DNA from: Syntrophomonadaceae bacterium
GTDB taxonomy: Bacteria > Bacillota > Dethiobacteria > DTU022
Length of the DNA stretch: 64,000 nucleotides
Assembly: GCA_003554615.1 (NCBI GenBank)
Contig: PWGX01000003.1
Span: forward strand, 2,894-66,893
Direction of reading: 5' to 3'
Shown: piece by piece, positions 25,780-54,752 of the stretch
Numbering within the stretch: the stretch's first letter is position 1
How the letters are laid out: each line of letters starts with the position of its first letter
Made by a program: the position numbers and the translations under genes
The notes under the pieces: model-generated
The model's input: the letters and a program-made list of their open reading frames with translations, nothing else
Databases searched by the model: none
What the model was told of the DNA's origin: nothing

Positions 25780-25915
25780 AGCCGAATTATAAAACCAGAT
25801 TTCAGTTTCAAAAAGGCTATCCTGACGATGAAATCAGCCAGGGAACCGGCCAGCCGTCAAATCGTTCCAGGAGCGCTTAATGATTATCGCTCACAGAAAG
25901 GAGAGAAATGCAATC

Positions 25916-32538: not shown

Positions 32539-33273
32539 CTAGTTGTTGCCTGTATTGTCGTCGTTGAAATCACTTGGAACCGGTTTTTCTATAATAAACA
32601 GGCTGTCTTCGCTGTTCCTGCTCAATTTTACAGCCATTGATATAGCCTGGGTCCGGTTTTTGACCTGGAGTTTACGGTAAATATTGCGCAGGTGGGTTTT
32701 TACTGTATCAACCGCCAGGTTTGTTGCGGAGGAAATTTCTTTGTTGGTCAAACCCCGCACCAGGTGCCTTAAAATTTCCTGCTCCCGGGGAGTTAATTCG
32801 ACTGGCTCTTCTTCTTTTTTTAGCGGCTTTATTTCTGTATGCTTTTTACTCAGGCGGGTGTAATCACTAACAATTTGCCTGAAGACAGACTGATCAATAA
32901 TGGTTTCTCCGCCGTGCACCCTTTTAATGGTGTCAATCAAGTTCTGCCGGCTCACATGCTTAAGAATATAACCGGAAGCGCCGGCCTGCAAGGCCAGGCG
33001 GATCGATTCTGTATCTTCAAAGACAGTTAAAAAGATAATCTTAATACCCGGTTTTTGAGCCAGGATCTCCCTGGCCGACTCAATTCCGTTCACACCCTCC
33101 ATTTTTATATCCATCAGGATAACATCCGGATCGAGCGAATGGGCTTTTTCCAGGGCCTCTTTGCTGTCTTCGCAGCTTCCGGCCACAATAATCTCTTCAC
33201 TGTTGTCAAGCATGTTGGTTAAACCTTCTCTGACCATGGGATGGTCATCGACAATGAGTATGCTTATGGTCAA
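32539..33273 (-). CDS. NarL/LuxR-family response regulator (REC + HTH)
   Basis: ILIVDDHPMVREG...DVILMDIKM is the REC domain. LTPREQEILRHLVRGLTNKEIS is the LuxR-type HTH. It overlaps the kinase gene by 4 nt. Confidence 0.85.
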   Translation of the reverse strand: MTISILIVDDHPMVREGLTNMLDNSEEIIVAGSCEDSKEALEKAHSLDPDVILMDIKMEGVNGIESAREILAQKPGIKIIFLTVFEDTESIRLALQAGASGYILKHVSRQNLIDTIKRVHGGETIIDQSVFRQIVSDYTRLSKKHTEIKPLKKEEEPVELTPREQEILRHLVRGLTNKEISSATNLAVDTVKTHLRNIYRKLQVKNRTQAISMAVKLSRNSEDSLFIIEKPVPSDFNDDNTGNN

Positions 33274-34985
33274 TTTTCTTGCTCCTCTCCGGATGATGTT
33301 TTAGAGGGAATACTGACTTTAATTTTCGTGCCTTTGCCAGGTTGGGAATCAATTTTGCAATCTCCCTCCAGCAGCAGAGCCCGTTCCTGGATCCCGGCCA
33401 AGCCCAAACGATGCATGGGCTGGCTTTGATTATAGTTATTTTTAGTGATGCCAAATCCGTTGTCCTCGACAATCAGGCCCACATTTTCATCTTCAATATT
33501 AAGGCTGACCCTGACATTGGTAGCTCCAGCATGCTTGACTACGTTTGTCAGGGCTTCCTGCAGGATCCTGAACAAGGCCACCTCAGTTTTTGAATCCAAC
33601 CTCTGTTTTTCACCGGAGATTTCCAGTTCAATGGGCAGATCGTATTTCTCAATTATGCTGTTTACATGAGCCTCAACAGCCGGAATCAGGCCGTAATTAT
33701 CCAAAATAATGGGACGTAGATCATATAAGATCCGCCTGATCTCCTGGATCTGTTCATTTAGAACCCCCGTCAATTCCATTATCTCGCTATGCCAATTTTC
33801 CGGTTCCATCCCTTCAGATGAAGAAAGGCGCTGGAGGCGATACCAGATTGCGATCAGGGACTGGATTATTCCATCATGCAGGTCGGCGGCAATTATTTTA
33901 CGTTCATCCTCCTGGGCGGTAATCAACTTGTTGACCAGCTGGTGCAAAAGCTGTTCCTTTTGCCCGAGCATATCGATCAACCTGGCGTTTTCTATGGCAA
34001 CGGCAGTAGCCCGGGCAATGGCAAAAATAATTTCTACTTCTTCGCTGTCAAAGCCTTCCGCCTCCGGGGGGCGGTCAACCTGCATAATGCCAATGGTTTT
34101 ACCCTTACTCATAATAGGGGCCAGCACGACCCATCCATAATTAAAATCTTCCACAATTTCCCTTGTCATCATTTTTTCACTGTTCCGGGGTGTTACCACC
34201 ACCGGCTCTTTGGCATTGATTGCTTTTTTTATGGCCGGAAATGCCTTCCTACCTTTGAGAGCCTTAAATTTCCTTTTTAAAACCGGGTCGTAACTGCCCA
34301 CCGCCACAGTGGGGATAAGAGTCTGATCCTCATCTTGGAGGAGGTAAATACAGCTCTTGGATGAAAATAGATCGGCAGTTAGCTGGGCCACAACATGAAG
34401 AACCTGCCTGATATCCAGGGTAGAACTGATCGTATTAACCATTTCCAGCCACACGGAAAGTTTCCTAAGGTGACGGTCTTTCTGCCTCTGGAAAAGGGAT
34501 TCCTGGATAATATCGGCCATATGCCTCCCCAGGGAAGCAGCCTTGGCCAGCATGTATTCCCCAGTTTGGTAGTCGGTATTAAATATGCCGATTTCCATCA
34601 TTCCCACCGGGTCCCCGGCTTTTAAAAATACCGGCAAATTAGTGGATATAACCGGCGAAAGAAGATCGAGCAGCTTTTTATTGCGCCTGTTTTCGGGGTC
34701 GGAAAGATAGTTGTTTAACTGGACACAGCGTTCCGGGTGGACGGCAACGCCGCTTCCATGATTTTTCTTTTCCTTGGAGGCATGCCAGCAAACAGGCACT
34801 TTTCCATCACGAAGAAGCATTAATGTAGCCCGGCAAAAATCAAAATTATCTACTGAAGCCTGCAAGGTACCCTGCAGGGAGGAATCCACCTGCTCAATCG
34901 AATCGAAATTAGGACTGACACGGCAGATGAGGATTAACTCCGGTTTATCCTTATACTCTCCTGCATGCCTGTTTTCACCTGTCAA
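33270..34985 (-). CDS. cytoplasmic sensor histidine kinase with GAF domains (HisKA_3/NarX type)
   Basis: 571 aa with no TM helices. It has GAF-like regions, then the H-box AADLHDGIIQSL and HATPase_c (VEDNGFGI, GLAGIQERA). Confidence 0.8.
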   Translation of the reverse strand: MTGENRHAGEYKDKPELILICRVSPNFDSIEQVDSSLQGTLQASVDNFDFCRATLMLLRDGKVPVCWHASKEKKNHGSGVAVHPERCVQLNNYLSDPENRRNKKLLDLLSPVISTNLPVFLKAGDPVGMMEIGIFNTDYQTGEYMLAKAASLGRHMADIIQESLFQRQKDRHLRKLSVWLEMVNTISSTLDIRQVLHVVAQLTADLFSSKSCIYLLQDEDQTLIPTVAVGSYDPVLKRKFKALKGRKAFPAIKKAINAKEPVVVTPRNSEKMMTREIVEDFNYGWVVLAPIMSKGKTIGIMQVDRPPEAEGFDSEEVEIIFAIARATAVAIENARLIDMLGQKEQLLHQLVNKLITAQEDERKIIAADLHDGIIQSLIAIWYRLQRLSSSEGMEPENWHSEIMELTGVLNEQIQEIRRILYDLRPIILDNYGLIPAVEAHVNSIIEKYDLPIELEISGEKQRLDSKTEVALFRILQEALTNVVKHAGATNVRVSLNIEDENVGLIVEDNGFGITKNNYNQSQPMHRLGLAGIQERALLLEGDCKIDSQPGKGTKIKVSIPSKTSSGEEQEN

Positions 34986-35200
34986 GTGTACACCGCCTTT
35001 AATAGGGACCGGTTGTATAAATAATAAAGTTCATACCATACATACATTCATTATATGCCAGTATAAAACCTGCCATTTCGCTCTAATCTTTAGAATTAAC
35101 CTGCTCCTTTCACTGCCTGCCGGAAATCTGCGAAGGAAACTTTAAAAATTTCATTAAACTGTTTTTTTAATTTTATCTTTTCCTTTTTATGCAGTCAACA

Positions 35201-35290
35201 CAGGGCTTCACTTAGGGGTTCATCCTTAGGGGTTAGCCCCGATTTCATACTTTTTAACCTTGTTTCCATGCTTTTTAGGGATTTTTTTAG
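35201..35290 (+). repeat. conserved intergenic element, copy upstream of the SDR-thiolase-dehydratase-ior operon
   Basis: It has the same core as 12106-12190 and 49172-49250. This copy carries an internal duplication of CTTAGGGGTT. Confidence 0.7.
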
Positions 35291-35428
35291 TACTTGTTTT
35301 TATTTAAACTTAAATAAAGTGCCAATAGTATAAACAAATTTACTGCAACCTTTTCATTCAGTGGCAAAGCAGGAATATTTTAAATCAAAAACTGTACAGC
35401 CGATTATCAGCAGGAGGTGTTTAATTAC

Positions 35429-36175
35429 GTGCGCTTAAAGGGCAACGTGGCAATCGTAACCGGTGCCAGCAAAGGCATTGGCGAAGCGGTTTCTTTGGCC
35501 CTGGCCGGAGAAGGTGCTGACCTGGTCCTGGCCAGCCGAAGCATAAAAGAAGAAGATCCGGTGGTCCATAAAATAAGAAAAATGGGCCGCCGGGTCCTGG
35601 TCAGGCAGGTTGATGTTGGAAACAGCGGCCAGGTTTTTGACATGGTCAGGAACACGATGGATGAATACGGGCATATTGATGTGCTTTTCAATAATGCCGG
35701 TATTTTTAAACCGGCTATGCTCTGGAAGATGTCCCTGGATCAGTGGGACGAAGTTTTAAGAATCAACCTCAGTGGAACTTTTTACTGTCTTCAGGCCGTT
35801 GCAAAGCCGATGATCGAACAAAAAAAAGGTTCAATCATCAACGTAACTTCTTCAGCCGGCCTGATAGGAACCATCGGGCAGGTCAATTACACGGCGGCCA
35901 AGGGAGGGGTTCATGCCCTGACCAAATCAGCCGCCAAAGAACTGGCCCGCCACAATATCCGGGTTAATACAATCGCCCCGCTGGCAGAAACCGACATGAC
36001 CCAGGTTATCGCCTCCGATCCAAAGTTTAAAGAAAAGTATCTGGAACGGATCCCCCTGGGTCGCTTCGGAAAACCGGAAGAAATCGGACCGGCAGTTGTA
36101 TTCCTGGCTTCGGATGACTCGAGCTATATTACCGGCCAAACTCTGTGCATTGACGGTGGAATGATTATGCTTTAA
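35429..36175 (+). CDS. short-chain dehydrogenase/reductase (FabG/3-hydroxyacyl-CoA dehydrogenase-like)
   Basis: It carries TGASKGIG, NNAG and Y-x3-K (YTAAKGG). The GTG at 35429 lies 11 nt after AGGAGG. The ORF-track start at 35417 overlaps the SD. Confidence 0.8.
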   Translation: MRLKGNVAIVTGASKGIGEAVSLALAGEGADLVLASRSIKEEDPVVHKIRKMGRRVLVRQVDVGNSGQVFDMVRNTMDEYGHIDVLFNNAGIFKPAMLWKMSLDQWDEVLRINLSGTFYCLQAVAKPMIEQKKGSIINVTSSAGLIGTIGQVNYTAAKGGVHALTKSAAKELARHNIRVNTIAPLAETDMTQVIASDPKFKEKYLERIPLGRFGKPEEIGPAVVFLASDDSSYITGQTLCIDGGMIML

Positions 36176-36265
36176 CAGCCGGGATACATTATGAAATGAA
36201 GCGGCTGCTAAAGCTGTTGTGGTATTGTTTGATCGTGAGGAATGACTAGCCAAGGAGGAATACCC

Positions 36266-37420
36266 ATGCCTAAAGATGTGGCCATTATCGGCGTAGGACA
36301 AAGCAATTTTGTCAGGGGCTATGAAGGATCGATCAGGGAACTTTCTTTTGAAGCTTACAGGGAGGCGATGCAGGATGCCGGCATCACATCTGAAAATATC
36401 GATGCCTCGATCATCTGTTCCGCTCCTGAATATGACAAACAGCGCAGCCCTTCTGGCCTGATCGCAGAATATTTGGGGTTGAACCCCCAGCCTACTTTTG
36501 CCGTTGAAAGTGTATGTTCATCAAGCACTACCGGACTCAAAACCGCTTACGGCCTGATTAAAAGCGGCCTGCACCAGGCAGTGGCAATAGTCGGATTCCA
36601 AAAAATGTCGGAAATATCCTCCGCCGATTCCCAGGAAAGGATGGGACGTGGTGCGGATATAATGTGGGAATCTCCATTTGGAACCACTATGCCTGCTTAT
36701 TACGCCATGCACGCCAGGACTCATTTTGACACCTACGGCACCACTGAAGAAGACCTGGCCCTGATCAGGATCAAGTCGGCCAGGTACGGGCAGCTTAACG
36801 AAAAAGCAGTTTACAGGAAAGACCTGACTATGGAAAAAATCATGGAAAGTAATTATGTCTCCAGCCCCCTGAAACGATTTGACTGCTGTGCCAACGCCGA
36901 CGGTTCCTCCTGTATCATAATGGCCTCTGCCGAAAAAGCAAGAGAACTGTCAGTTCAACCCGTCTGGATCCTGGGCCTGGGTTCTGCCACCGCTTCCTAC
37001 AGCATTACCGGCAGGAAGGCCTATGAAGGCCTGGAAAGCGCCCGCGGAGCTGCCCGCCAGGCCTACGAAATGGCTTCAGTTAAGCCGGATGATATCGATG
37101 TGGCTGAAGTGCACGATTGTTTTACCATCGCTGAACTAATGGCTTACGAAAACCTGGGATTTGCCAGTCCCGGCCGAGGGGTGGATTTGATTCGCAACAA
37201 AGAAACATACCTGAAAGGAAAAATTCCGGTAAATGTGGACGGAGGCCTTTTATCGAAAGGCCATCCGATCGGCGCTACCGGTGGTTCCCAGGTCAGGACT
37301 ATTGTCCAGCAACTGCGGGGAGAATCAGGAGAAATACAGGTTCCCGGGGCAAAAATCGGCCTGGTCCATAATATCGGTGGGGTAGGCATCTATGCTAATG
37401 TAATTATCATGGGATCATAA
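36266..37420 (+). CDS. SCP-x/nsLTP-type thiolase (the type that normally pairs with a DUF35 OB-fold protein)
   Basis: MPKDVAIIGVGQSNF..., active-site Cys context ESVCSSS, and C-terminal NVDGGLLSKGHPIGATG...GGVG. The ATG follows CAAGGAGG. Confidence 0.75.
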   Translation: MPKDVAIIGVGQSNFVRGYEGSIRELSFEAYREAMQDAGITSENIDASIICSAPEYDKQRSPSGLIAEYLGLNPQPTFAVESVCSSSTTGLKTAYGLIKSGLHQAVAIVGFQKMSEISSADSQERMGRGADIMWESPFGTTMPAYYAMHARTHFDTYGTTEEDLALIRIKSARYGQLNEKAVYRKDLTMEKIMESNYVSSPLKRFDCCANADGSSCIIMASAEKARELSVQPVWILGLGSATASYSITGRKAYEGLESARGAARQAYEMASVKPDDIDVAEVHDCFTIAELMAYENLGFASPGRGVDLIRNKETYLKGKIPVNVDGGLLSKGHPIGATGGSQVRTIVQQLRGESGEIQVPGAKIGLVHNIGGVGIYANVIIMGS

Positions 37421-37440
37421 CTTGAAGGAGATATGTCCAG

Positions 37441-38301
37441 GTGAAAGCACCAATTATTGATTTTCACATCCATCCAGTCGTTTACGATCAGTTTTACGTC
37501 GAAACTGCCCTGAACTGGATCAAGGAGATGCACGCCGATAAAAACTGGGACCGATTTTACCGGGATTTATCCGACCCGGATTATTTTTACAGCTACCTGC
37601 AGAATCATGGTATTGACTACGGAGTGGTGATGGCGGAAATATCGCCGATGGTAACCGGCATTTGCACCAACGAATACGTACAACGGTTCTGCCGGGATAA
37701 AGAAGGGCTGATCCCCTTTGCCAGCATCAATCCCAGCCTGACCGTCAATACCGGCCGAGAATTAGAACGCCTGGTTAAAGAAGGCTTCAGGGGGGTAAAG
37801 CTTTATCCTACTTACCAGCACTGTTACCCCAATGATCGCAAGTTATACCCGCTCTACAGGCAGGCCGAAGAGATGCAGGTTCCGGTTATGGTTCATACCG
37901 GCACTTCGATTTTTAAAGGATCCAAACTGAAATACGGCGATCCACTTTACCTTGACGAAGTGGCGGTAGACTTCCCCGAGTTAACAATAATCCTGGTCCA
38001 CAGTGGAAGGGGATTCTGGTATGAACGGGCTTTTGTCCTGGCCAGGCTTCACGAAAATGTATATATGGAAATAGCCGGGTTGCCGCCCCGTAAACTGCTT
38101 GATTATTTCCCGGAGATGGAGAGGGTTGCTGACAAAGTCCTGTTTGGAACGGACTGGCCCGGCATTAAAAACCCGGGTGCCAACATTAAAACCATTCAAA
38201 ATCTGCCCTTAAGTGAAAGCAGCATCCAGAAAATCCTGGGCGGCAATGCAGCCAGGTTGTTGGGTCTTCCGGTGAAAAAGCCGAAACAAAGAAACAACTG
38301 A
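37441..38301 (+). CDS. amidohydrolase_2-family metal-dependent hydrolase/decarboxylase-like protein
   Basis: IIDFHIHP at the N-terminus, plus VHTG, LVHSG and GTDWP blocks, are typical of the PF04909-type TIM-barrel. Confidence 0.7.
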   Translation: MKAPIIDFHIHPVVYDQFYVETALNWIKEMHADKNWDRFYRDLSDPDYFYSYLQNHGIDYGVVMAEISPMVTGICTNEYVQRFCRDKEGLIPFASINPSLTVNTGRELERLVKEGFRGVKLYPTYQHCYPNDRKLYPLYRQAEEMQVPVMVHTGTSIFKGSKLKYGDPLYLDEVAVDFPELTIILVHSGRGFWYERAFVLARLHENVYMEIAGLPPRKLLDYFPEMERVADKVLFGTDWPGIKNPGANIKTIQNLPLSESSIQKILGGNAARLLGLPVKKPKQRNN

Positions 38302-38393
38302 AATTAAATATAAGGAAAAGAAGGAAAAGAAGGAAAGTTTTTTTCTATGTTGAATCAAGAATATTGTAACTATATTGTGGAGGTGCCGTTAAA

Positions 38394-39416
38394 ATGACAA
38401 AGTTCAATCCCCTAAATATCCTGGTTGCCCTGCAGCCCGGACTGGGCAACCCTGAAGAGTATAAGGAAATCATAGAAAAAAAGTTCCCTAAAAAAACAGC
38501 AAAAAGGGAAATCCGGGTCAGGCTGATCCAGGACGGGTCTGCCGAATCAATTCCAGATGAATACCTGGACACTCATATTGTCGGGTCGGGAGTAATTGTA
38601 GAAAGAGTTCCTGAAATGAAAGATCTGCAGTGGATAATGTCTCTCAGCGCCGGAATTGATCACTGGGCCATGTGGGGCAAGGTCCCTCCCCATGTCCCCC
38701 TGACCTGCCTTCCCGGCGGTTCGGGTATTCCGGTCTCCGAATTTGTGCTCGGCCTGATGCTAAACCTGGCCAAAAAATATAACCAGCTCTGGGATCAGCA
38801 AAAGGAAAAGAAATTTATTCGGGTCCGGGGGGAAGAACTTTACGGAAAAACGATTGGTATCGTCGGCCTGGGCGGTATCGGCCGGCAGATTGCCAAGCGG
38901 GCCAAGGGGTTCGATATGCGCGTAATCGGCACCGACATTATGAAGATGGACATCCCTAATGTCGATCAATTGTATTTAAACGACCAGGTAGACGAAGTCA
39001 TCCGGCAGGCTGATTATCTTGTCCTGTCCTGCCCGCTCACCGATCAAACAGAGGGGATCATGAATGAAAGGACCTTCAAACTGATGAAAGACTCAGCATA
39101 CCTGATCAACTGCGCCCGAGGAGCTTTAATTGTCAAAGAAGATTTAATCAGGGCTTTAAATAAAGGCTGGATTGCCGGTGCTGCCAATGACACCCACTGG
39201 ATTAAAAAGCCCCTTCCTTCTTACCTGCCCCCGGAAGACGAACTGTGGGATTGCAACAATATATTGATCACCCCTCACATTTCAAGCTGGACCGATCAAT
39301 ATGCACCCAGGTTTGGGGGGGCCTTTGTCGATAATATTGAGCGTTACTTAAACGGGGAGCCGCTTCAGAACGTAGTGCCCGGATTTGAAGGGGATCCGCA
39401 GTGGCTGAAACAATAA
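38394..39416 (+). CDS. D-isomer-specific 2-hydroxyacid dehydrogenase, NAD-binding
   Basis: GKTIGIVGLGGIGRQIAKRAKGFDMRVIG is the Rossmann motif. INCARGALI and ITPHISSWT are the catalytic R/E/H blocks. Confidence 0.8.
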   Translation: MTKFNPLNILVALQPGLGNPEEYKEIIEKKFPKKTAKREIRVRLIQDGSAESIPDEYLDTHIVGSGVIVERVPEMKDLQWIMSLSAGIDHWAMWGKVPPHVPLTCLPGGSGIPVSEFVLGLMLNLAKKYNQLWDQQKEKKFIRVRGEELYGKTIGIVGLGGIGRQIAKRAKGFDMRVIGTDIMKMDIPNVDQLYLNDQVDEVIRQADYLVLSCPLTDQTEGIMNERTFKLMKDSAYLINCARGALIVKEDLIRALNKGWIAGAANDTHWIKKPLPSYLPPEDELWDCNNILITPHISSWTDQYAPRFGGAFVDNIERYLNGEPLQNVVPGFEGDPQWLKQ

Positions 39417-39457
39417 AACTTTACTGCTTCATCCTGCTATAAAGGAGAGATCCGTCA

Positions 39458-40600
39458 ATTAAAACTGAATTAATCGCGCCATTTGAAAATGCCCTTAAAA
39501 ACCGGACCGAAGAAGCAAAACAGTGGAAAAATGAAAACGGAGGACAAGTGATCGGCTTTCTTTTAACCGACGTCCCCGAAGAACTAATCCATGCCGCCGG
39601 TTTTTTCCCGTATGGAATCATCGGCGGGAGTCGGAACCTGGAAGAAGCCAACACCCACCTCCAGGCCTGGGCCTGCTCTTATTCCAGGAGCGCACTGGCC
39701 CGCGCCCTGGAAGGGGAGCTGGATTTCCTGGACGGGCTGATCATACCTCAAACCTGCGACACGATGCGAATGCTTCTTGACCTGTGGGAACACGTCCGAC
39801 CTCTGCCGTACATGGATAACTTTCGCCTGCCCAGACAGGTAAACCGGCCCAGCGCCGGGAGATATCTCCTCGGGGAACTGGAAAGGATCAAAAAAGGGTT
39901 GGAAGACTTCAGCGGCGCTGCTCTAGACAATGAAATAATTACCGAGAGCATAAAATTATACAACCATAACCGGCAGCTGCTGCGCAGGATAGACGCTCTG
40001 CATGCCAGGTATCCTAATCAGCTCAGTTCCCGCCAGCTTTATACCCTGATTAATGGTTCCATGATCATGCCCAGGAACAAAGTTAACCGGTTACTGCAGG
40101 CCGTTGTTGGAGAGCTGGAACAGAATCTCGGCCCTCAAGAAAATGGCGGGCTGGTGCGGCTTTTGATGTCGGGCACTTTGCTGGAGCCGTTTGAAGTCCT
40201 CGATTATATTGAAGAATTCGGAGGCACAGTAGTTGCAGACGACTTCCAGAATGGCTACCGCTATATCGAAGCGGATGTGGATACTGATAAAGAGCCGTTG
40301 GAAGCGCTGGCGGAACGGCAGTTAAGGCGAATACCTTCGGCCGCATTCGACCTGGAATATAACCCCAGGAGATTTTTTCTAACCGATCTGGCCAGAAAAA
40401 AAGAAGCCGGGGGAGCATTATTCCTCCATCTCACCTTTTGTGAACCGGAAAACTTTGACTGTTATGACAACCTGAAAGCCATGCAGGAGCAGGGCTTTCC
40501 AGCCATGCGCATTGAAACCCAATTCGGAGGAGCAGGCCTGGGCCAAATCCGGACCAGGATCAACGCTTTCATGGAAATGGTTGGAGGTGTAAGCAAGTGA
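39458..40600 (+). CDS. 2-hydroxyacyl-CoA dehydratase family subunit (HgdB/FldC/BcrB-like)
   Basis: It contains the family N-terminal block (...AKQWKNENGGQVIGFLLTDVPEELIHAAGFFP). That block extends upstream of the listed GTG (39548), and no ATG, GTG or TTG lies in frame after the stop at 39440-39442. ATT at 39458 lies 10 nt after GGAG. Confidence 0.7.
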   Translation: MKTELIAPFENALKNRTEEAKQWKNENGGQVIGFLLTDVPEELIHAAGFFPYGIIGGSRNLEEANTHLQAWACSYSRSALARALEGELDFLDGLIIPQTCDTMRMLLDLWEHVRPLPYMDNFRLPRQVNRPSAGRYLLGELERIKKGLEDFSGAALDNEIITESIKLYNHNRQLLRRIDALHARYPNQLSSRQLYTLINGSMIMPRNKVNRLLQAVVGELEQNLGPQENGGLVRLLMSGTLLEPFEVLDYIEEFGGTVVADDFQNGYRYIEADVDTDKEPLEALAERQLRRIPSAAFDLEYNPRRFFLTDLARKKEAGGALFLHLTFCEPENFDCYDNLKAMQEQGFPAMRIETQFGGAGLGQIRTRINAFMEMVGGVSK

Positions 40601-41793
40601 CCGAAAAAAATGTATTCAAAACCGCCGGACTGATGAAAGAGATGATGAAGAAGTACAACGAAGCCGGCCGGAAAGCAAAAGACGATGGAAGATTGGTGGC
40701 CTGGGTTACTGCCGTATTTCCGGTAGAACTTATTTACGCCGCCGGCCTTTTCCCCTACTACCCGGAAAATTTCGGCGCCGTAGCCGCAGCCAGGAAAGTG
40801 GCCCACGAGCTGTCAGCTGCTGCAGAAGAGAAGGGGTACGCCCGTGATTTGTGCGGTTATGCCCGCTGCGGAATAGGAGATGCCTACTCGGAAGAACATC
40901 CGGTGGGCAAAATTCTTGAACCCGACCTGCTTTTTTGCTGCAACACCCAGTGCGGGAGCTTGTCAAAATGGTTTGAAGTAGCAGGAAGGTACTATCAATC
41001 CCCCTATTTTCTGCTTGATTCTCCCAGGGTGGGCCTGGAAACAGATCAGCTTTGTATAGAATACTTTGTTGAACAGCTGCATGAAATGATTGAATTCATT
41101 GAAAAACAGACCGGCCAACCTTTTGACTATGATCGCTTGAGAGAAGTGTTAAACCTTTCCAACGAAGCCTGCCAGCTTTGGAACGAGGTGCTTGATTCAG
41201 CCGCCTTGAAACCCGCTCCCTTTGGGTTCTTCGATGCCTGCTTCCACATGGCCCCCATTGTCACCCTGAGGGGAACCCGGGACGCAGTAAATTATTACCA
41301 GGCTCTTAAAAAGGAAATAGACGAACGAATCGAGAATGGAATAACGGCCATACCGGAAGAGCGGCACAAGATTTATTTTGACCATATCCCCTGTTGGCCA
41401 AAATTGCGCTGGTTTTCAGATCTTTTTGCTTCACGGGGAGCGCTGGTTGTAGCTTCACAGTATACCCATTCCTGGGCTTACTCCTTCGACCTTGAACGCC
41501 CTCTGGAAAGCCTGGCTGAAAACTATACCCATGAATTCGTAAACCGCTGCTTTGAATACCGGGTCCAGCGAAAAATCAGCTTTATGGAAAAATACAATGT
41601 TGACGGGTTTGTCCTTTTTTCCAACCGCAGCTGTAAACCCAATGCTTTTGGCCTTTACGCCAAAAGTAAATTGATCAGGGAAAAAACCGGGCTTCCCGGA
41701 GTTGTGTTTGAAGCGGATATGGCAGATCTGCGCTTGTTTTCCGAAGACCAGGTTTTAGCAAAGCTGGAACCATTCTTCGAACAATTAAATTGA
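40597..41793 (+). CDS. 2-hydroxyacyl-CoA dehydratase family subunit (HgdA/FldB/BcrC-like)
   Basis: 398 aa. It reads GRLVAWVTAVFPVELIYAAGLFPYYPENF and has conserved Cys residues. The GTG overlaps the preceding stop (GTGA). Confidence 0.75.
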   Translation: MTEKNVFKTAGLMKEMMKKYNEAGRKAKDDGRLVAWVTAVFPVELIYAAGLFPYYPENFGAVAAARKVAHELSAAAEEKGYARDLCGYARCGIGDAYSEEHPVGKILEPDLLFCCNTQCGSLSKWFEVAGRYYQSPYFLLDSPRVGLETDQLCIEYFVEQLHEMIEFIEKQTGQPFDYDRLREVLNLSNEACQLWNEVLDSAALKPAPFGFFDACFHMAPIVTLRGTRDAVNYYQALKKEIDERIENGITAIPEERHKIYFDHIPCWPKLRWFSDLFASRGALVVASQYTHSWAYSFDLERPLESLAENYTHEFVNRCFEYRVQRKISFMEKYNVDGFVLFSNRSCKPNAFGLYAKSKLIREKTGLPGVVFEADMADLRLFSEDQVLAKLEPFFEQLN

Positions 41794-41819
41794 ATTTAGA
41801 CTAACAAGGAGGGTTAGCA

Positions 41820-43565
41820 TTGAAAAAATTAATGACCGGAAATGAGGCTTTCGCTTACGGATCCTACCTGCACGGGGTGCGGTTCGCAGCCGCCTACCCC
41901 GGAACTCCAAGCTCGGAAATACTGAGCAATTATGCCAGGTACCCGGGAATTTTCGCTGAATGGTCTCCCAATGAAAAAGTGGCCCTTGATGCAGCCATCG
42001 GAGCAGCTTATGCCGGCACCAGGGCTATGAGTTCCATGAAGCATGTCGGTATGAATGTGGCGGCGGACTCCCTGTTCTATGCCGTTTACACCGGCTTAAA
42101 AGCAGGCCTAGTTATTATCTGCGCAGATGATCCCAATATGCACAGCTCCCAGAATGAGCAGGATAACCGCAATTACGCCAAGTTCGCCAAGTGCCCCATG
42201 CTTGAGCCATCGGACAGTGAGGAAGCCAAGCAGTTCGTGGGCACAGCTCTTGACATGAGTGAGCAGTTTGACACCCCGGTTATAGTCCGCAGCGTGACTC
42301 GACTGTCTCATTCATCCACACCGGTGGAAGTTACCGATCAAGAACCGCCGCCGCCGGAGGAACCGCCGGTTTATGAAAGGGATGCCCAGAAATTTGTTAT
42401 GGTCCCCGCCAATGCCAGGCGCCGCCATCCGGTGGTCGAAGAACGGTTAAAACAGCTGGCCGAGTTTGCCGAATCCACTCCAATCAACTACATTGAGTCA
42501 GGCGACAGCAAACTGGGCATTGTCAGCGCCGGGGTATGCTATCACTATGCCAGGGAAGTATTTCCCGATGCCACTTTCCTTAAACTGGGTATGGTTTATC
42601 CCCTGCCCGAAAAACTGATTCATAAATTTGCGGAACAGGTGGATAAAATCATCGTCGTAGAAGAACTCGATCCTTTCCTGGAAGAACGGTTGAAGCTGAT
42701 GGGCATTGAAGTGCAGGGCAAGGATATCTTCCCCATGATCGGCGAATTCAGCCCTTCCCTGATACGCAGCAGTGCCGTCCAAGCCGGCCTGATCGAAGCA
42801 CCAGAAGCCCTACCCGAAATAAAAAGCAATCTGGAGCGCCCCATCAGGCCGCCGATGCTATGTCCCGGATGCGGACACCGGGCTCTTTTCCACGTCCTCA
42901 GGGAAAACGGTGTCCTGGTTACCGGCGACATCGGCTGTTATACCCTGGCCTTTGCCCCCCCTCTTAACGCCATGCACACCACCGGCTGCATGGGAGCCAG
43001 CATCGGCGTAGCGCACGGTATCAATAAGGCCGGCGTAAAAGATGATGTAGCTGCCGTCCTGGGAGACTCTACATTCCTGCATTCCGGGATCCACCCCGTA
43101 ATCGATGTTCTCTACAACCAGGGCTCCACCACCACGATCATCTCGGACAACAATGCCACGGCCATGACCGGTTTCCAGGAACACCCGGGAACCGGTAAAA
43201 CAGTCCAGGATAGGGAAACCAAGGTGGTGGACCCGGAAAAACTGGTCCGCGGTATCGGGTATGAAAAAGTAGACATTTGCGATCCTTACGACATCGACAA
43301 AATGGAAAAAATCCTGCAGGACCACCTCAAAAGCGAAGAGCCGTCAGTCATTATCGCCAGGCACCCCTGCGTGCTGAGCACCAGGGAAAAACATACTCCG
43401 CCCGAGGTGGATCCTGAAATCTGCATCAACTGCGGCGTCTGCCTGGATATCGGGTGCTCACCCCTGGTTCAAGAGGAAGACCATGTCCGGATCGATACCC
43501 TGTTATGCAACGGCTGCGGCCTTTGTGTAAAAGTATGTCCCCAGGAGGCCATAATCGAAAAGTAA
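41820..43565 (+). CDS. iorA: indolepyruvate (arylpyruvate):ferredoxin oxidoreductase alpha subunit
   Basis: 581 aa. It has LMTGNEAFAYGSYLHGVRFAAAYPGTPSSEI, the TPP-binding GDIGCYTL...GDSTFLHSG, and C-terminal 2x[4Fe-4S]. Confidence 0.85.
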   Translation: MKKLMTGNEAFAYGSYLHGVRFAAAYPGTPSSEILSNYARYPGIFAEWSPNEKVALDAAIGAAYAGTRAMSSMKHVGMNVAADSLFYAVYTGLKAGLVIICADDPNMHSSQNEQDNRNYAKFAKCPMLEPSDSEEAKQFVGTALDMSEQFDTPVIVRSVTRLSHSSTPVEVTDQEPPPPEEPPVYERDAQKFVMVPANARRRHPVVEERLKQLAEFAESTPINYIESGDSKLGIVSAGVCYHYAREVFPDATFLKLGMVYPLPEKLIHKFAEQVDKIIVVEELDPFLEERLKLMGIEVQGKDIFPMIGEFSPSLIRSSAVQAGLIEAPEALPEIKSNLERPIRPPMLCPGCGHRALFHVLRENGVLVTGDIGCYTLAFAPPLNAMHTTGCMGASIGVAHGINKAGVKDDVAAVLGDSTFLHSGIHPVIDVLYNQGSTTTIISDNNATAMTGFQEHPGTGKTVQDRETKVVDPEKLVRGIGYEKVDICDPYDIDKMEKILQDHLKSEEPSVIIARHPCVLSTREKHTPPEVDPEICINCGVCLDIGCSPLVQEEDHVRIDTLLCNGCGLCVKVCPQEAIIEK

Positions 43566-43607
43566 ATTGAAGCAGCCTAAATTAATATTAGAGGGAGGCA
43601 CGAAAAC

Positions 43608-44192
43608 ATGAAAAACATAGACTTTCTAATGGCAGGGGTCGGTGGTCAGGGCACCATCCTGGCCAGCAACATCCTGGCCGAGGTAGGGCTGCAGCTTGGG
43701 TATGATGTAAAAAAAGCCGAAGTGCACGGGATGGCCCAGAGGGGCGGCCAGGTAGACAGCCATATTCGCTGGGGAGACAAAGTTTATTCTCCCCTGGTCG
43801 AGGAAAACAACGCCGATTACCTGATTGGTTTTGAAATGCTGGAAGCAGCCCGCTTTCCTCATTTCTTAAAAGAGAATTCTTTGGCCCTGGTAAACGATTA
43901 CCGGATCAACCCACCCCTGGTTAACCTGGGCAAAGCTGCTTATCCATCAAAAAAAGAGATTGAAGCCCTGATCCTGGAAAGGGCCGGTAAAGTCCTCTGG
44001 ATAGAAGGAACTGGAATTGCCAAGAATTTAGGCAACCCGGCCATGGTGGGTGTAGTTATGCTCGGCGCCCTTTCCACCCTGATCGGCGGGGATAAGGAAG
44101 CATGGCTCGATGTAGTCGGGCGGATGGTGCCGCAAAAATTTGTGGAACTTAATAAAGAAGCCTTCAATGCGGGATGTGAAGTAACCGCTTAA
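43608..44192 (+). CDS. iorB: indolepyruvate:ferredoxin oxidoreductase beta subunit
   Basis: 194 aa. GVGGQGTILASNILAE...HGMAQRGG is typical of IorB/gamma-type subunits. Confidence 0.85.
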   Translation: MKNIDFLMAGVGGQGTILASNILAEVGLQLGYDVKKAEVHGMAQRGGQVDSHIRWGDKVYSPLVEENNADYLIGFEMLEAARFPHFLKENSLALVNDYRINPPLVNLGKAAYPSKKEIEALILERAGKVLWIEGTGIAKNLGNPAMVGVVMLGALSTLIGGDKEAWLDVVGRMVPQKFVELNKEAFNAGCEVTA

Positions 44193-44320
44193 AGCGAGCC
44201 AGCGCAACAGTTCTGTTTAGGTTAAATGATTGGAGTTTTCAGTTGGCGGGTTTCACGGCTATAAGAGCCATATCCGGCAGCCCGCTAACTGAGCTAGTTA
44301 AAACAAAAGGAGGGAATAAG

Positions 44321-45886
44321 GTGAATTTTGCTTCTTACGGTATTATTAATGCCCACAAATATCCGGAGAAGGATTTCCTAATTGAGTGTAGCCCATCTAA
44401 AAATCAGCGCCGGGTGCTTACCTGGGAAGAATTCAATGATCAGGCCAACCGTGTTGCCAACTATTTGAAAAACCAGTTGGGAATAAAAAAAGACGATTAC
44501 ATTTTGCACCTGCAGATGAACAGCCTTGAATGGATGGTAACCTACCACGCCATTCTCAGGACAGGGGCAGTAGCGGTCCCCCTCAACTTCCGTTTCGCCA
44601 GTTCGGATATCAAGTACGCAGCCGAGGCAAGCAATCCCAAAGCCTTTATCTTAAGCGACGGGTTCCTGGAAAAAGTAGAACCGATCCGGGATGAAATGAA
44701 CACAATTGACTCGTATATCTGTATCGGCGATAACGTCACTGATGGTATGATCCCCTATGCCGAAATCCTGGAACACCCTGAAAACGATGATCTCCTGGTC
44801 AATGTCGACGAAAATGATGCCGCTGAACTAATGTTTACTTCAGGGACTACCGGACCGCCCAAGCCGGTCTGCCAGGCCCACAAAACTTTATACGAAATCG
44901 GGCTCGGGAATGCCCTAACTTATTCGGAAGGACATGAAACAGTATACCTGGCCGCACACCCTCTATATCACAGCGGCAGCCTGTTCCTGTCATTCCCATC
45001 GTACCTGGCCGGCGGCAAGATTGTCCTGCTCCTTGAACTCAGCGATCCCAGATATTTGATTGAAACTATCGCCAATGAAAAGATCAACAATGGCTGGGTT
45101 ACGGTTCCCACCATGTCCGACTCAATCAATGCTATCAAAAAAGGGCAGATTGATATTAACGATTTTGACCTCTCCCATGTAACCGGGAATATTGTCATCG
45201 GCGCCCAACCGGTTCCTTCAGCGCTGTTCAAAGATATGAAAAAACTGCTGCCCTTTAAAACCGGAAACATTTACGGGATCACCGAAGGCGGCGGAGGCGG
45301 CACCTTTAACCTGTATAATGAAGATGTCCTCGACCGCCCGGGATCCATCGGCAAACCTACTTTCAACGTATCTGCCCGCGTGGTCGACGATCACGGTAAC
45401 GATGTTTCGGTGGGAGAAGTCGGTGAGCTGCTGTTAAAAGGCCCACGCAACATGAAAGAATATTTCAAGAACCCGGAAATGACCGCCCGGACCATTAAAG
45501 ATGGTTGGCTGTACACCGGCGATTTGGTCCGGCAGGACGAAGACGGTTATGTTTACATTGCCGACCGGAAAAAAGACTTGATCATCAGGGGCGGTGAAAA
45601 CATCTTCCCGGTAGAAATCGAAGATATTTTACGCCGCAATCCAAAAGTCGCCGACGTAGCAGTGATCGGCTACCCGCACGAACGCTACGTTGAAATAGCA
45701 ATGGCTGTAATCCAGCTTTATCCGGAAGAATCAATGAATGAACAGGAAGTAATCGATTTCTGTAAAGAAGAAGGCCTGGCCCGGTACAAGTGGCCGGAAA
45801 AAATTGTTTTCGACCAGGTCATACGCAATGTTACCGGAAAAATAGACAAGCCCCGCCTGAGAGAAAAATATATCGACGAAAAGTAA
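44321..45886 (+). CDS. AMP-dependent acyl/aryl-CoA ligase
   Basis: ANL superfamily motifs are present (FTSGTTGPPKP, YGITEGGG, GDLVRQDEDGYVYIADRKKD). The GTG at 44321 follows AAAGGAGGG. Confidence 0.8.
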   Translation: MNFASYGIINAHKYPEKDFLIECSPSKNQRRVLTWEEFNDQANRVANYLKNQLGIKKDDYILHLQMNSLEWMVTYHAILRTGAVAVPLNFRFASSDIKYAAEASNPKAFILSDGFLEKVEPIRDEMNTIDSYICIGDNVTDGMIPYAEILEHPENDDLLVNVDENDAAELMFTSGTTGPPKPVCQAHKTLYEIGLGNALTYSEGHETVYLAAHPLYHSGSLFLSFPSYLAGGKIVLLLELSDPRYLIETIANEKINNGWVTVPTMSDSINAIKKGQIDINDFDLSHVTGNIVIGAQPVPSALFKDMKKLLPFKTGNIYGITEGGGGGTFNLYNEDVLDRPGSIGKPTFNVSARVVDDHGNDVSVGEVGELLLKGPRNMKEYFKNPEMTARTIKDGWLYTGDLVRQDEDGYVYIADRKKDLIIRGGENIFPVEIEDILRRNPKVADVAVIGYPHERYVEIAMAVIQLYPEESMNEQEVIDFCKEEGLARYKWPEKIVFDQVIRNVTGKIDKPRLREKYIDEK

Positions 45887-45988: not shown

Positions 45989-47575
45989 TTAACTGCCGGT
46001 GTTCCAGCTTCCATATTTTTCACGCAGGACCCGGTGCAGGATTTTTCCAGTAGCTGTAACCGGCATCTCATTTTCTTCAATAAAATCTATTGATTTAGGC
46101 CTTTTGTAACCGGCAATCTTATCCCGGCAGTAATCAATAATTTCCCTGGCAAGCTCTTCGCCCGGATCATAGCCCTCATGAGGAACAATAACCGCCTTCA
46201 CCGCTTCACCCCACTTATCGTCGGGAACTCCAATCACAGCAATATTTTTAACAGCCGGGTGGCCGCCGACCACATTCTCCACCTCGGAAGGGTAAACATT
46301 TTCGCCCCCGGTGATGATCATATTCTGCTTTCGGTCCACCAGGTAATAATAGCCTTCTTCATCCCGGCGCGCCATGTCCCCCGCAGAACACCACTCCCCA
46401 TGAAAAGCCGTTTCAGTTTTCTCTTCGTCCTTCCAGTATTCTTTGAAAACAATAGGCGAACGGCTGAAAAGCTCACCGACCTCTCCGTCAGGCACTTCCT
46501 CCCTGGTGATATCAAGCAATTTAATCCGGTCGGTACCGAATATTTCTCTGCCGATAGATCCAAGCTTGGTAAACTGTTCTTCCGGACGAAGGTAAGTGAC
46601 CAGCCCGGCTTCGGTAGAGCCGTAAGCCTCCCATAGCTCCGCCGACTTGAAATAATCCATGATTGCCAGCTTCAGATCTTTCCTGGCCGGGGCGGATGAT
46701 ATCAACAGCTGCCTCATGCTGCTGACATCGTAATTCTGCTTAACTTCATCCGGCAAGCTGAGGATGGTTATGTAATGCGTTGGCACGAGTGAAGTATAAG
46801 TAATCTTATACTCGGACACTGTTTTTAAGAAATCTTCCGGATCGAAAGTGGTAACATTGTAAACCATGACCGGAGCGGCAAGCAGAGTATAGGCGAAAGA
46901 ATAGTAGATTGAATTGACATGACACATCGGCATAACCAGCAGTATTTTATCTTGCGATCTGACTCCCATGTTAACATTGCTCAGAACATACTGGGCCATA
47001 TAACTTTCATGAGTTCTGACCGCACCCTTTGGTTTGCCGGTTGTCCCCGAAGTGTACATGATCGTCCAGATATCGGCCGCATCGACCATAACTGCCGGCT
47101 CACCGGGCTGACTGTGTTCAATAAACTCTTCGTAGTCAACAAAGCCTTCCGGTTTTTCACCATCACCGATACAAATAAAATTATCTTTGGGGACAGTTTT
47201 TAATTTACTGCTGATGCTGTTAACTCCTTCCACAAATGGAGTTTCGACAATAAAAGCTTTGCATTCGGCATGATTAACAATATACTCATATTCCCGCGGC
47301 GTCAGCCGGAACATAATCGGAACGGCGATCTGGCCTCCTTTGGCACAGGCTGCGTACATTTCCATCCATTCAGCCCGGTTATAGGCCAGTATTGCCACCC
47401 TGTCTCCGTAGCCTACCCCTTTTTCATGGAGTCCATTGGCTATGCGGCAGGCCCTGTCATTCCATTCCCTGAAAGTAAAGCTCTTGTTTTTATCCTGACA
47501 GCCTAAATGATCAGGATAATTAAAAGCATTGCTTTTAAGGAGAGTACCGACGTGCATCCATTTACTCACAGTCAT
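45989..47575 (-). CDS. AMP-dependent acyl/aryl-CoA ligase
   Basis: 528 aa with ANL motifs (YTSGTTGKPKG, YGSTEAG, GDMARRDEEGYYYLVDRKQN). The substrate cannot be read from the sequence. Confidence 0.8.
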   Translation of the reverse strand: MTVSKWMHVGTLLKSNAFNYPDHLGCQDKNKSFTFREWNDRACRIANGLHEKGVGYGDRVAILAYNRAEWMEMYAACAKGGQIAVPIMFRLTPREYEYIVNHAECKAFIVETPFVEGVNSISSKLKTVPKDNFICIGDGEKPEGFVDYEEFIEHSQPGEPAVMVDAADIWTIMYTSGTTGKPKGAVRTHESYMAQYVLSNVNMGVRSQDKILLVMPMCHVNSIYYSFAYTLLAAPVMVYNVTTFDPEDFLKTVSEYKITYTSLVPTHYITILSLPDEVKQNYDVSSMRQLLISSAPARKDLKLAIMDYFKSAELWEAYGSTEAGLVTYLRPEEQFTKLGSIGREIFGTDRIKLLDITREEVPDGEVGELFSRSPIVFKEYWKDEEKTETAFHGEWCSAGDMARRDEEGYYYLVDRKQNMIITGGENVYPSEVENVVGGHPAVKNIAVIGVPDDKWGEAVKAVIVPHEGYDPGEELAREIIDYCRDKIAGYKRPKSIDFIEENEMPVTATGKILHRVLREKYGSWNTGS

Positions 47576-47872
47576 TAAATTCCCACTCCTAATTAAAATT
47601 TTAAATCGATAAATACAGCAAAATGTATGAAAAATCTCTATCGTATATTAATATTTTCTATTCTTCATTATTAAACTTATCCCTTCCCTGTAGGCCCCTA
47701 AAGGCGGTGGTAACCCATTTATCACACTCTAATCAAAAAAATACCTCTTTTAGGTGATAGAAATATGCGCCCAAATTTAATAACATTAAATTTATAAGAA
47801 GAATTTTTTATCTTCCCTTGATATTGTATTTTCAAAAAACAGGCCGTGCTACCCTGAGGAGGAATTGACTTG

Positions 47873-54733: not shown

Positions 54734-54752
54734 CTGACGGCTTTTTAGAGAG

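Follow-up and report, generated by a model that had tools for sequence, protein, structure and literature searches.

A conserved module of 2-hydroxyacyl-CoA dehydratase, beta-oxidation and IorAB genes in a Syntrophomonadaceae bacterium as a candidate route from phenyl-substituted acids to benzoyl-CoA

Overview

A 64,000-nucleotide stretch of DNA from a Syntrophomonadaceae bacterium (GenBank assembly GCA_003554615.1, contig PWGX01000003.1, positions 2,894 to 66,893 of the forward strand), referred to here as the window, contains a run of nine genes within what its gene families mark as a benzoyl-CoA pathway island. The nine open reading frames (ORFs) lie on the + strand at 35417-45886 and are spaced by short gaps or one overlap. 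They encode a short-chain dehydrogenase/reductase (SDR), an SCPx-type thiolase, an amidohydrolase_2 protein, a D-isomer-specific 2-hydroxyacid dehydrogenase, two subunits of the 2-hydroxyacyl-CoA dehydratase family (HGD-D), IorA, IorB and an AMP-forming acyl-CoA ligase. ORF calling and profile matches to Pfam and NCBIfam, by which the gene families were assigned, agree with an initial annotation made from the letters alone, which had listed nine co-directional, closely spaced genes of these families. The module is best regarded as a union of the chemistry known from clostridial 2-hydroxyacyl-CoA dehydratases with aryl beta-oxidation and IorAB.

Together with its neighbours, the operon would act as a peripheral funnel by which a strict anaerobe converts phenyl-substituted C3 and C2 acids to benzoyl-CoA and acetyl-CoA, a reading that is given slightly better than even chances. 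It is carried by the placement of the dehydratase pair, by the recurrence of the same gene set in many genomes and by the benzoyl-CoA pathway genes on both sides.

The proposed pathway

The trunk of the proposed pathway would begin with the reduction of phenylpyruvate to (R)-phenyllactate by the D-2-hydroxyacid dehydrogenase. An AMP-forming ligase, replacing the clostridial CoA-transferase FldA, would then form phenyllactyl-CoA, which the two-subunit [4Fe-4S] radical dehydratase would convert to cinnamoyl-CoA with the aid of an ATP-dependent activator encoded outside the window. Cinnamoyl-CoA would next be hydrated, the candidates for this step being the amidohydrolase_2 protein, the crotonase at 51315 and a gene elsewhere. 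Oxidation by the SDR and cleavage by the SCPx thiolase with a DUF35 protein would yield benzoyl-CoA and acetyl-CoA, the former entering the Bam/Oah/Had pathway encoded on both flanks. This sequence of steps, from arylpyruvate through D-aryllactate, its CoA ester, dehydration and beta-oxidation to benzoyl-CoA, was one of two branches in the initial annotation and fits the comparative evidence from related loci.

Phenylacetate would enter by way of the PaaK-like ligase as phenylacetyl-CoA, which IorAB would convert to phenylpyruvate at the expense of reduced ferredoxin. This carboxylation would be pulled by the exergonic reduction of phenylpyruvate to phenyllactate. If IorAB does carboxylate, all the conserved parts form one linear pathway, and phenylalanine, phenylpyruvate, phenyllactate and phenylacetate would share a single trunk.

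The dehydratase pair

The two HGD-D genes overlap by 4 nt, and both products match PF06050 from end to end at about 1e-77. Among NCBIfam models the alpha-like subunit (DehA) scores highest with HadB (263.7 bits), ahead of BcrB (176.8, cutoff 486.6) and BzdO (139.3, cutoff 448.6). The beta-like subunit (DehB) scores highest with HadC (184.4 bits), followed by BcrC (164.2, cutoff 421.2), a double-cubane model (156) and BzdN (109.9, cutoff 453.8), so that none of the benzoyl-CoA reductase (BCR) equivalogs was passed. Solved structures in the PDB give the same order, with HadB at 6.5e-59 against MbdO at 3e-36 and MbdO/BzdO at about 1e-36 for alpha, and HadC at 3.5e-46 against BzdN at 8e-33 for beta. 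The ranking of HadBC above the BCR subunits is repeated in ten relatives, down to 43% identity. Scored against HadBC, Bcr, Bzd and Mbd, the pair is by these rankings a separate clade on the dehydratase side and falls outside the aryl-CoA reductase family, in keeping with the role proposed in the initial annotation.

Residues C86, C119 and C346 of alpha are invariant in the family and aligned with the HadB cysteines, and the three Cys motifs of beta align with HadC. By these alignments, the cysteines for one [4Fe-4S] cluster per subunit are conserved. The best solved relative of the neighbouring 2-hydroxyacid dehydrogenase is a Haloferax D-2-hydroxyacid dehydrogenase (3.9e-40). A family-III CoA-transferase was found neither in the operon nor as a recurring gene among the related loci; AMP-forming ligases are present in its place.

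The absence of a dehydratase activator, already remarked in the initial annotation, was borne out by tblastn with four activator sequences and one 3HCDH-type dehydrogenase sequence, which found neither function in the 64-kb window. The alpha/delta-type ATPase pair of class I benzoyl-CoA reductase is likewise absent from the window. An activator ATPase adjoins the pair in nine loci of the same clade that are more distant than the closest relatives, and in solved-structure searches these ATPases are HadI/HgdC/MbdQ-like (1e-57 to 1e-72). The activator serving this genome could be encoded elsewhere in it. At three loci (L038 912-2595, L039 867-2549 and L058 5254-6919) the pair is accompanied by two paralogous ATPase genes, which gives these loci a BCR-like look. 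The paralogues are ~257 and ~291 aa long, the longer one having a conserved Trp-rich N-terminal extension, and both are nearer to HadI/MbdQ than to the delta-type MbdP. A heterodimeric activator is one possibility.

Conservation of the module

Among the candidates scored, 179 homologues of alpha were obtained at E <= 1e-20. The genome scan, which took one genome per species, found 74 related loci, almost all of them in Bacillota. The hosts are soda-lake 'Syntrophomonadaceae'/Dethiobacteria metagenome-assembled genomes (MAGs; 84-95% identity), Peptococcaceae, Desulfotomaculum, Desulfoscipio gibsoniae, Pelotomaculum terephthalicicum, Thermincola and Desulfosporosinus. The soda-lake 'Syntrophomonadaceae' MAG L008 retains the gene order of the window with 94-99% identity in every gene, so that the window very probably stems from this soda-lake lineage of the Bacillota. 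Homologues of 43-44% identity (L082-L084) lie in unrelated gene contexts and were not used as evidence; the IorAB-linked clade is therefore taken to start at ~47-50% identity.

Co-occurrence was counted as genes within 9 kb of DehA in 76 loci, which are not phylogenetically independent. DehB is present in 73 of these and IorA, in several gene orders, in 58. They are followed by Lig528, the AMP-forming ligase convergent to the operon (49/76), the 2-hydroxyacid dehydrogenase (48/76), the SCPx thiolase (37/76) and the operon's own ligase, Lig547 (36/76). The PaaK-like ligase is near DehA in 24 loci and the PaaY-like gene in 13. Since the dehydrogenase, dehydratase pair, IorAB, ligases and beta-oxidation set stay clustered in at least six different orders, functional coupling is a likelier explanation than inherited synteny. 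As the same gene set occurs in several orders in 74 loci of many lineages, the arrangement is not due to chance. In the Thermincola-type loci L051, L062 and L076 the full predicted set stands in a row, with Lig528 directly upstream of the activator and dehydratase genes; the order in L051 is dehydrogenase-ligase-activator-DehB-DehA-IorA-IorB-PaaK-3HCDH-thiolase-crotonase.

IorAB and the entry of phenylacetate

IorA passes the TIGR03336 equivalog (669.1 bits, cutoff 650.9) and contains the POR_N, TPP_enzyme_C and Fer4 domains. IorB falls short of its models, with a best score of 224.1 bits against a cutoff of 237 and 160.7 against 205.8 for TIGR03334, and matches PadE at 28.7 bits only. The best NCBIfam matches of the PaaK-like ligase are PaaK models (394 and 350 bits, both below cutoff). 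In relatives this ligase often directly adjoins IorB or DehA.

Ligases of the PaaK type are effectively irreversible activators, and 2-oxoacid:ferredoxin oxidoreductases are reversible. Among the related loci, no PadBCD-like or other alpha-oxidation genes recur. Given the irreversible ligase and the lack of recurring alpha-oxidation genes, IorAB would be the only enzyme of the module able to consume phenylacetyl-CoA, as a carboxylase. Rumen bacteria and methanogens carboxylate phenylacetate to phenylpyruvate for phenylalanine synthesis, and their indolepyruvate oxidoreductase reductively carboxylates arylacetyl-CoA for aromatic amino-acid synthesis. The family and the proposed direction are the same in the window; the role is anabolic there, while a catabolic entry is proposed here. 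It is accordingly possible, at somewhat less than even chances, that IorAB runs as a reductive carboxylase from phenylacetyl-CoA to phenylpyruvate.

The initial annotation had instead drawn two branches from an arylpyruvate, one of which left phenylacetyl-CoA as a dead end. This does not sit well with the PaaK-like ligases beside IorAB and DehAB or with the PaaY-like gene of 13 loci, and the recurrence of both would fit carboxylation by IorAB better.

Beta-oxidation genes and the hydration step

The SDR passed no NCBIfam equivalog. The thiolase reaches 418.5 bits with PRK06064 (cutoff 420) and fails the BbsB equivalog by a wide interval (172.7 bits, cutoff 750). The Bbs-like thiolase of the initial annotation stands, on these scores, at the level of the superfamily, including the likeness to BbsAB, and does not extend to BbsB itself. 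The DUF35 gene lies 12 kb from the thiolase, as had been noted, and directly follows it in many relatives. The window protein is 49-59% identical to the post-thiolase protein of many related loci, among them L004, L021, L027 and L038-L039, and the L004 copy carries PF12172/PF01796. It is the probable partner of the SCPx thiolase.

Related loci carry this SDR or else a 3HCDH-type dehydrogenase, and beta-oxidation genes of some type are always present, either SDR/SCPx-thiolase or 3HCDH/ECH/thiolase. The only crotonases of the window are Oah at 50039 and the generic hydratase at 51315, which confirms that no hydratase gene lies within the operon. About 20 related loci have a 3-hydroxyacyl-CoA dehydrogenase and/or a crotonase gene in the cluster, next to the dehydratase and IorAB genes or between them.

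The amidohydrolase_2 protein has an intact metal-ligand set. H9 and H11 lie in a DFHIHP motif, H152 and H187 are invariant in 30 orthologues, and D238 lies in GTDW beside the invariant W239. Its best solved relative, 3IRS, is of unknown function, and weak matches were obtained to ACMSD, the LigJ hydratase and the LigY C-C hydrolase. The gene occurs with the SDR in 24 of 24 loci, and within 9 kb its presence is anticorrelated with that of 3HCDH/crotonase genes. A role as the hydratase is the leading guess. The stronger proposal that it replaces the crotonase was downgraded, as a PaaK-SSF-Amidohydro_2 arrangement lies directly beside one crotonase-type cluster.

A 65% identical amidohydrolase_2 protein is also encoded in Pelotomaculum thermopropionicum (L085, AP009389, 17865-18701), between serS and an acyl-CoA dehydrogenase/EtfAB/FixCX cluster. 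The region has neither dehydratase nor IorAB genes, and this non-aromatic context weakens the idea of hydratase replacement. In view of this homologue, the family is broader than the pathway.

Comparison with known systems

The combination of genes had been thought undescribed in the initial annotation; a comparable cluster has in fact been reported. The 'catabolic hotspot' of Desulfococcus multivorans (Dmul_24730-24900) lies between bam and ring-cleavage genes (Dörries et al. 2016, PMC5109826). It encodes Hbd5, a HADH/ECH fusion, a thiolase, sensor kinases, a regulator, the TRAP transporter DctPQM4 and two ligases, together with a 'predicted R-phenyllactate dehydratase alpha', an 'activator', a 'putative phenylpyruvate reductase' and IorA3B3 (PMC5109826). 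Growth on phenylacetate and phenylpyruvate specifically elicited the transporter, one ligase and the beta-oxidation enzymes; IorAB appeared on phenylpyruvate and, in smaller amounts, on phenylacetate, where it was termed 'gratuitous' (PMC5109826). The organism has no PadB or PadEFGHI and grows on phenyllactate (PMC5109826). The beta-oxidation enzymes were assigned by the authors to phenylglyoxylate formation, the step to benzoyl-CoA was called 'unclear', and no cinnamoyl-CoA route was proposed (PMC5109826).

The window resembles the modules of D. multivorans and Desulfobacula toluolica Tol2 in its IorAB, phenylpyruvate reductase, dehydratase, two FadD-like ligases, TRAP transporter, two-component system, beta-oxidation genes and bam flank. 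D. multivorans differs in belonging to another phylum, in its gene order and in having one HGD-D protein plus an activator. It has a HADH/ECH fusion and Hbd, and no amidohydrolase_2 protein or SDR is listed there. Enzymes of beta-oxidation make chemical sense for a C3 side chain only and are useless on a C2 side chain. Carboxylation by IorAB would explain why the D. multivorans beta-oxidation enzymes are induced by phenylacetate and why IorAB is formed on it. A full-text literature search on the gene combination and route found, beyond the D. multivorans study, only a hypothetical scheme of 2026 for the benzene degrader BzS1, which runs from phenylpyruvate through phenyllactyl-CoA and cinnamoyl-CoA to benzoyl-CoA (PMC13416013). 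The search found no paper proposing the entry of phenylacetate into such a route, and the supplements of a Desulfobacteraceae paper of 2025 hold no pathway detail.

As in the FldH/FldBC system of Clostridium sporogenes, HadBC and HgdAB, a D-2-hydroxyacid dehydrogenase gene of the window adjoins genes for two paralogous HGD-D subunits. Unlike those systems, the window has AMP-forming ligases instead of a family-III CoA-transferase and lacks an activator. It also has a thiolase and a dehydrogenase in place of the enoyl-CoA reductase or electron-transferring flavoprotein (ETF), which suggests that the enoyl-CoA is oxidised rather than reduced. The Fld, Had and Hgd hosts are amino-acid fermenters, whereas the hosts of the module are respiratory or syntrophic ring degraders.

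The Pad pathway of denitrifiers (PadJ, PadBCD, PadEFGHI) likewise takes in phenylacetate through a PaaK/PadJ-type ligase and delivers benzoyl-CoA. It oxidises the alpha-carbon, whereas the chemistry proposed here would add one side-chain carbon and remove two. No molybdopterin PadBCD or five-subunit PadEFGHI domains were found among the scanned window ORFs of at least 150 aa. In the beta-oxidation of cinnamate and 3-phenylpropanoate (Aromatoleum aromaticum EbN1, Rhodopseudomonas palustris, Dmul_24630-80) an aryl enoyl-CoA is similarly hydrated, dehydrogenated and thiolysed to benzoyl-CoA, and the Bbs system for toluene shares an SCPx-type thiolase with DUF35 partner and an SDR dehydrogenase. 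In contrast to both, the operon has no acyl-CoA dehydrogenase and no crotonase. An acyl-CoA dehydrogenase would not be needed, since the double bond would come from dehydration.

Implications

The decay of protein in sediments and guts yields phenylacetate and phenylpropionate among its main products; both accumulate in anaerobic digesters and inhibit them. How phenylacetyl-CoA is converted to benzoyl-CoA by strict anaerobes without the quinone-dependent molybdenum enzyme of denitrifiers is an open question, and has reportedly been one since a proteogenomic study of Desulfobacula in 2013. The last step was still 'unclear' in the 2016 Desulfococcus study (PMC5109826). The module offers a testable answer. 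Strict anaerobes without PadBCD may degrade phenylacetate through IorAB carboxylation and cinnamoyl-CoA, with the amidohydrolase_2 protein and SDR possibly hydrating in clusters of the window type, although this wider proposal is tentative and rather more doubtful than probable. If true, it would be a second, oxygen- and quinone-independent solution to the oxidation of the alpha-methylene group and a catabolic use of a 2-oxoacid:ferredoxin oxidoreductase in the carboxylating direction. It would also be the first ketyl-radical dehydratase to feed respiratory or syntrophic ring degradation, not fermentation, and would supply marker genes for aryl-acid mineralisation in metagenomes.

Opposing evidence and alternative explanations

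Several observations weigh against the proposed funnel. The operon holds no dedicated cinnamoyl-CoA hydratase, the window holds no activator, and none was found within 10 kb of the pair in the closest relatives (84-95% identical). The HadB and HadC equivalogs were failed (263.7 against 750 bits and 184.4 against 700 bits); as no equivalog cutoff was passed, substrate specificity is not readable from the sequence of the pair. Two AMP-forming activations plus reduced ferredoxin would be costly for a strict anaerobe. The D. multivorans dehydratase lies outside the 120 closest homologues of alpha, so that the link to that experiment is one of analogy, not orthology. The shared ancestry of the counted loci also tempers the co-occurrence figures.

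Further points concern the direction of IorAB. The classical direction of indolepyruvate oxidoreductase is oxidative decarboxylation. The D. multivorans IorAB was most abundant on phenylpyruvate, and its authors read this as oxidative use (PMC5109826). D. gibsoniae, in which the core module is present, grows on phenylacetate; its genome paper credits Pad genes, and PadBCD is annotated. These points also speak for a scheme in which phenylpyruvate is a hub, IorAB oxidatively forms phenylacetyl-CoA to be excreted as phenylacetate or handled by Pad-type or other enzymes elsewhere, and the dehydratase branch runs in parallel to benzoyl-CoA. That scheme is considered unlikely. It gives no role to the PaaK-like ligases recurring beside IorB and DehA, and it makes IorAB unneeded for benzoyl-CoA although IorA is among the most conserved partners (58 of 76 loci). 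Moreover, phenylacetate supports growth of both D. multivorans and D. toluolica, which lack PadB and PadEFGHI, and they form IorAB and beta-oxidation enzymes on it (PMC5109826).

The substrates might differ under the same logic, being 4-hydroxyphenyl or indolyl acids from tyrosine and tryptophan, or branched-chain 2-oxo and 2-hydroxy acids as for HadBC. The closest solved relative of the pair does belong to a leucine pathway, DctP of the window resembles what is probably an indoleacetate-binding protein, and xanthine-dehydrogenase-family genes whose best match is 4-hydroxybenzoyl-CoA reductase alpha flank four to six loci. This is improbable, as IorA meets the indolepyruvate (arylpyruvate) oxidoreductase equivalog and not those for VOR or KOR, PaaK-like and PaaY-like genes recur, and the module lies within benzoyl-CoA pathway genes, which indolyl products would not enter. 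The 4-hydroxybenzoyl-CoA reductase match, at 357 bits, is far from its cutoff of 995. More improbable again is that the pair is an ATP-driven low-potential reductase or other radical enzyme of the BCR or double-cubane kind. One such route would lead from phenylacetyl-CoA by way of mandelate to phenylglyoxylate, the dehydrogenase then being a mandelate dehydrogenase and IorAB a phenylglyoxylate oxidoreductase. The paired ATPase genes of L038, L039 and L058 resemble a four-subunit BCR, the HadC score of beta (184 bits) is little above that of BcrC (164), and a phenylglyoxylate intermediate was assumed for D. multivorans (PMC5109826). Alpha and its ten relatives nevertheless clearly favour HadB over BcrB and BzdO, with no BCR cutoff passed, and both ATPase paralogues match HadI/MbdQ far better than MbdP. 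Where an activator is encoded, the locus mostly has one ATPase gene, as is the case for dehydratases; alpha-hydroxylation is not known for this family, and the conserved beta-oxidation genes would be left without a role. The lowest probability is given to a Stickland-type set as in C. sporogenes, in which phenylpyruvate would yield phenylacetate through IorAB with a gain of ATP and 3-phenylpropionate through the dehydratase branch. The dehydrogenase, dehydratase and 2-oxoacid oxidoreductase are indeed the established core of that system. Here, an FldA-type CoA-transferase and a recurring EtfAB cluster are lacking and an acyl-CoA dehydrogenase occurs in two loci only; AMP-forming ligases, a thiolase and a 3-hydroxyacyl-CoA dehydrogenase are found instead, and ring-reduction genes surround the module.

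Gene calls and surrounding genes

The features of the operon and its surroundings are collected in Table 1. Two starts were revised. The frame of beta stays open 5′ of the GTG at 39548 from which it was first called, the upstream extension is conserved among orthologues, and with the unrevised start the alignment to HadC begins only at HadC residue 35. At the conserved N-terminus (39443-39548 of the window) there is no ATG, GTG or TTG. An ATT at 39458 stands behind the ribosome-binding site AAGGAGAG in the window, L008 and L011, and L016 has TTG there. The subunit probably starts at this ATT, giving 380 aa to match orthologues of 378-385 aa, and the ATT looks like a conserved non-canonical start codon. 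For Lig547, whose orthologues have 521-524 aa, the GTG at 44321 carries the strong ribosome-binding site AAAGGAGGG. It is probably the start, giving 521 aa and leaving the first 26 codons from TTG 44243 untranslated. A promoter and terminator scan gave counts equal to the shuffle expectation and was uninformative on operon structure.

Table 1. Operon genes and neighbouring features, in window coordinates
Feature	Position	Strand	Profile evidence	Proposed or candidate role
BamB-I-like class II benzoyl-CoA reductase set	12473-23208	+	AFOR, Fe-S, CCG/HdrD-like, HdrA-like, FlpD, NuoE/F-like and 2Fe-2S, in Bam order (Pfam)	
Hexapeptide-repeat protein (gamma-carbonic-anhydrase/PaaY-like)	25880-26443	+	Hexapep; NCBIfam gamma-CA 161 bits, PaaY 146 bits, both below cutoff	
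TRAP transporter DctP	29324-30460	+	Pfam DctP	Candidate aryl-acid uptake
TRAP transporter DctQ	30559-31122	+	Pfam DctQ	Candidate aryl-acid uptake
TRAP transporter DctM	31119-32423	+	Pfam DctM	Candidate aryl-acid uptake
LuxR-type response regulator	32539-33273	- (divergent)	Pfam	Candidate operon regulator (two-component system)
GAF-HisKA_3 sensor kinase	33270-34985	- (divergent)	Pfam	Candidate operon regulator (two-component system)
SDR (FabG-like)	35417-36175	+	adh_short_C2 1.7e-65	Proposed 3-hydroxy-3-phenylpropionyl-CoA dehydrogenase
SCPx-type thiolase	36242-37420	+	Thiolase_C_1 1.7e-42	Proposed benzoylacetyl-CoA thiolase
Amidohydrolase_2 metal enzyme	37441-38301	+	Amidohydro_2 (Pfam) 2e-38	Candidate hydratase or hydrolase
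D-isomer-specific 2-hydroxyacid dehydrogenase	38394-39416	+	2-Hacid_dh_C 8e-54	Proposed arylpyruvate reductase/aryllactate dehydrogenase, FldH counterpart
Dehydratase beta-like subunit (DehB)	39458-40600 (revised; first called from GTG 39548)	+	HGD-D 2.5e-77	
Dehydratase alpha-like subunit (DehA)	40597-41793	+	HGD-D 7.8e-77	Proposed (R)-phenyllactyl-CoA dehydratase catalytic subunit
IorA	41820-43565	+	TIGR03336 passed	Proposed arylpyruvate:ferredoxin oxidoreductase with IorB
IorB	43608-44192	+	All top matches are IorB models	
AMP-forming acyl-CoA ligase Lig547	44321-45886 (revised; longest ORF 44243-45886)	+	AMP-binding 1.8e-68	Candidate aryllactate-CoA ligase
Second AMP-forming ligase Lig528	45989-47575	- (convergent)	AMP-binding 5.5e-82	Candidate aryllactate- or arylpropenoate-CoA ligase
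PaaK-like ligase	47870-49168	+	AMP-binding and AMP-binding_C_2	Candidate phenylacetate-CoA ligase
DUF35/ChsH2-type zinc-ribbon OB protein, 144 aa	49454-49888	+	CxxC...CxxC motifs	
Oah	50039-51169	+	TIGR03200 560 bits (cutoff 464), passed	
Enoyl-CoA hydratase (crotonase)	51315-52079	+	Generic; dienoyl-CoA hydratase 153 bits (cutoff 292)	
Had	52104-53171	+	TIGR03201 483 bits (cutoff 339), passed	

The Bam reductase set named in the initial annotation is present upstream of the operon. The protein at the BamF position (19464-20156) joins an MvhD/FlpD domain to a C-terminal ArsR/MarR-type helix-turn-helix, an unusual fusion of electron transfer and DNA binding. Between the Bam genes and the PaaY-like gene, the - strand (23223-25181) encodes a 652-aa acetyl-CoA hydrolase/transferase fused to a C-terminal GNAT domain. 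Its best match is butyryl-CoA:acetate CoA-transferase, below cutoff, and such a CoA-transferase could spare one ATP-dependent activation. The stretch upstream of the operon that holds the PaaY-like gene and the TRAP transporter also contains an additional thiolase gene.

The close relatives L006 and L008-L019 also have the TRAP genes upstream of the cluster. Among the solved relatives of DctP, 4pgn/4pgp/4nap rank second to third; we take them to be Dde_0634. Dde_0634 is an indoleacetate-binding protein (PMC9543091). Of the 76 loci, 20 have the sensor kinase beside the cluster and 13 have the regulator; D. gibsoniae and Pelotomaculum are among them. In ten related clusters, a gene for a 270-aa SAM-methyltransferase-like protein lies between the sensor kinase and the SDR (L016 3826-4638; others include L010, L011, L018, L038 and L039). 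It has a weak match to glycine/sarcosine N-methyltransferase and is absent from the window, where 34985-35417 is intergenic.

Four to six loci (L036 14693-18554, L043 402-4117, L050 501-4307, L068 1902-5659) have a trio of xanthine-dehydrogenase-family genes, for FAD, 2Fe-2S and molybdopterin subunits, next to the cluster. The trio hints that some versions of the module handle 4-hydroxyphenyl acids. The link of its large subunit to 4-hydroxybenzoyl-CoA reductase was kept as a lead only, owing to the distance of the match from its cutoff.

Downstream of Had, genes for a pyridine-nucleotide-disulfide oxidoreductase (458 aa), a tungsten-type aldehyde:ferredoxin oxidoreductase (622 aa) and a 4Fe-4S protein (155 aa) follow in a row at 53357-57102. 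Phenylacetaldehyde is a possible substrate of this AorABC-like set, and its oxidation to phenylacetate would make the set part of the same phenylalanine-derived island.

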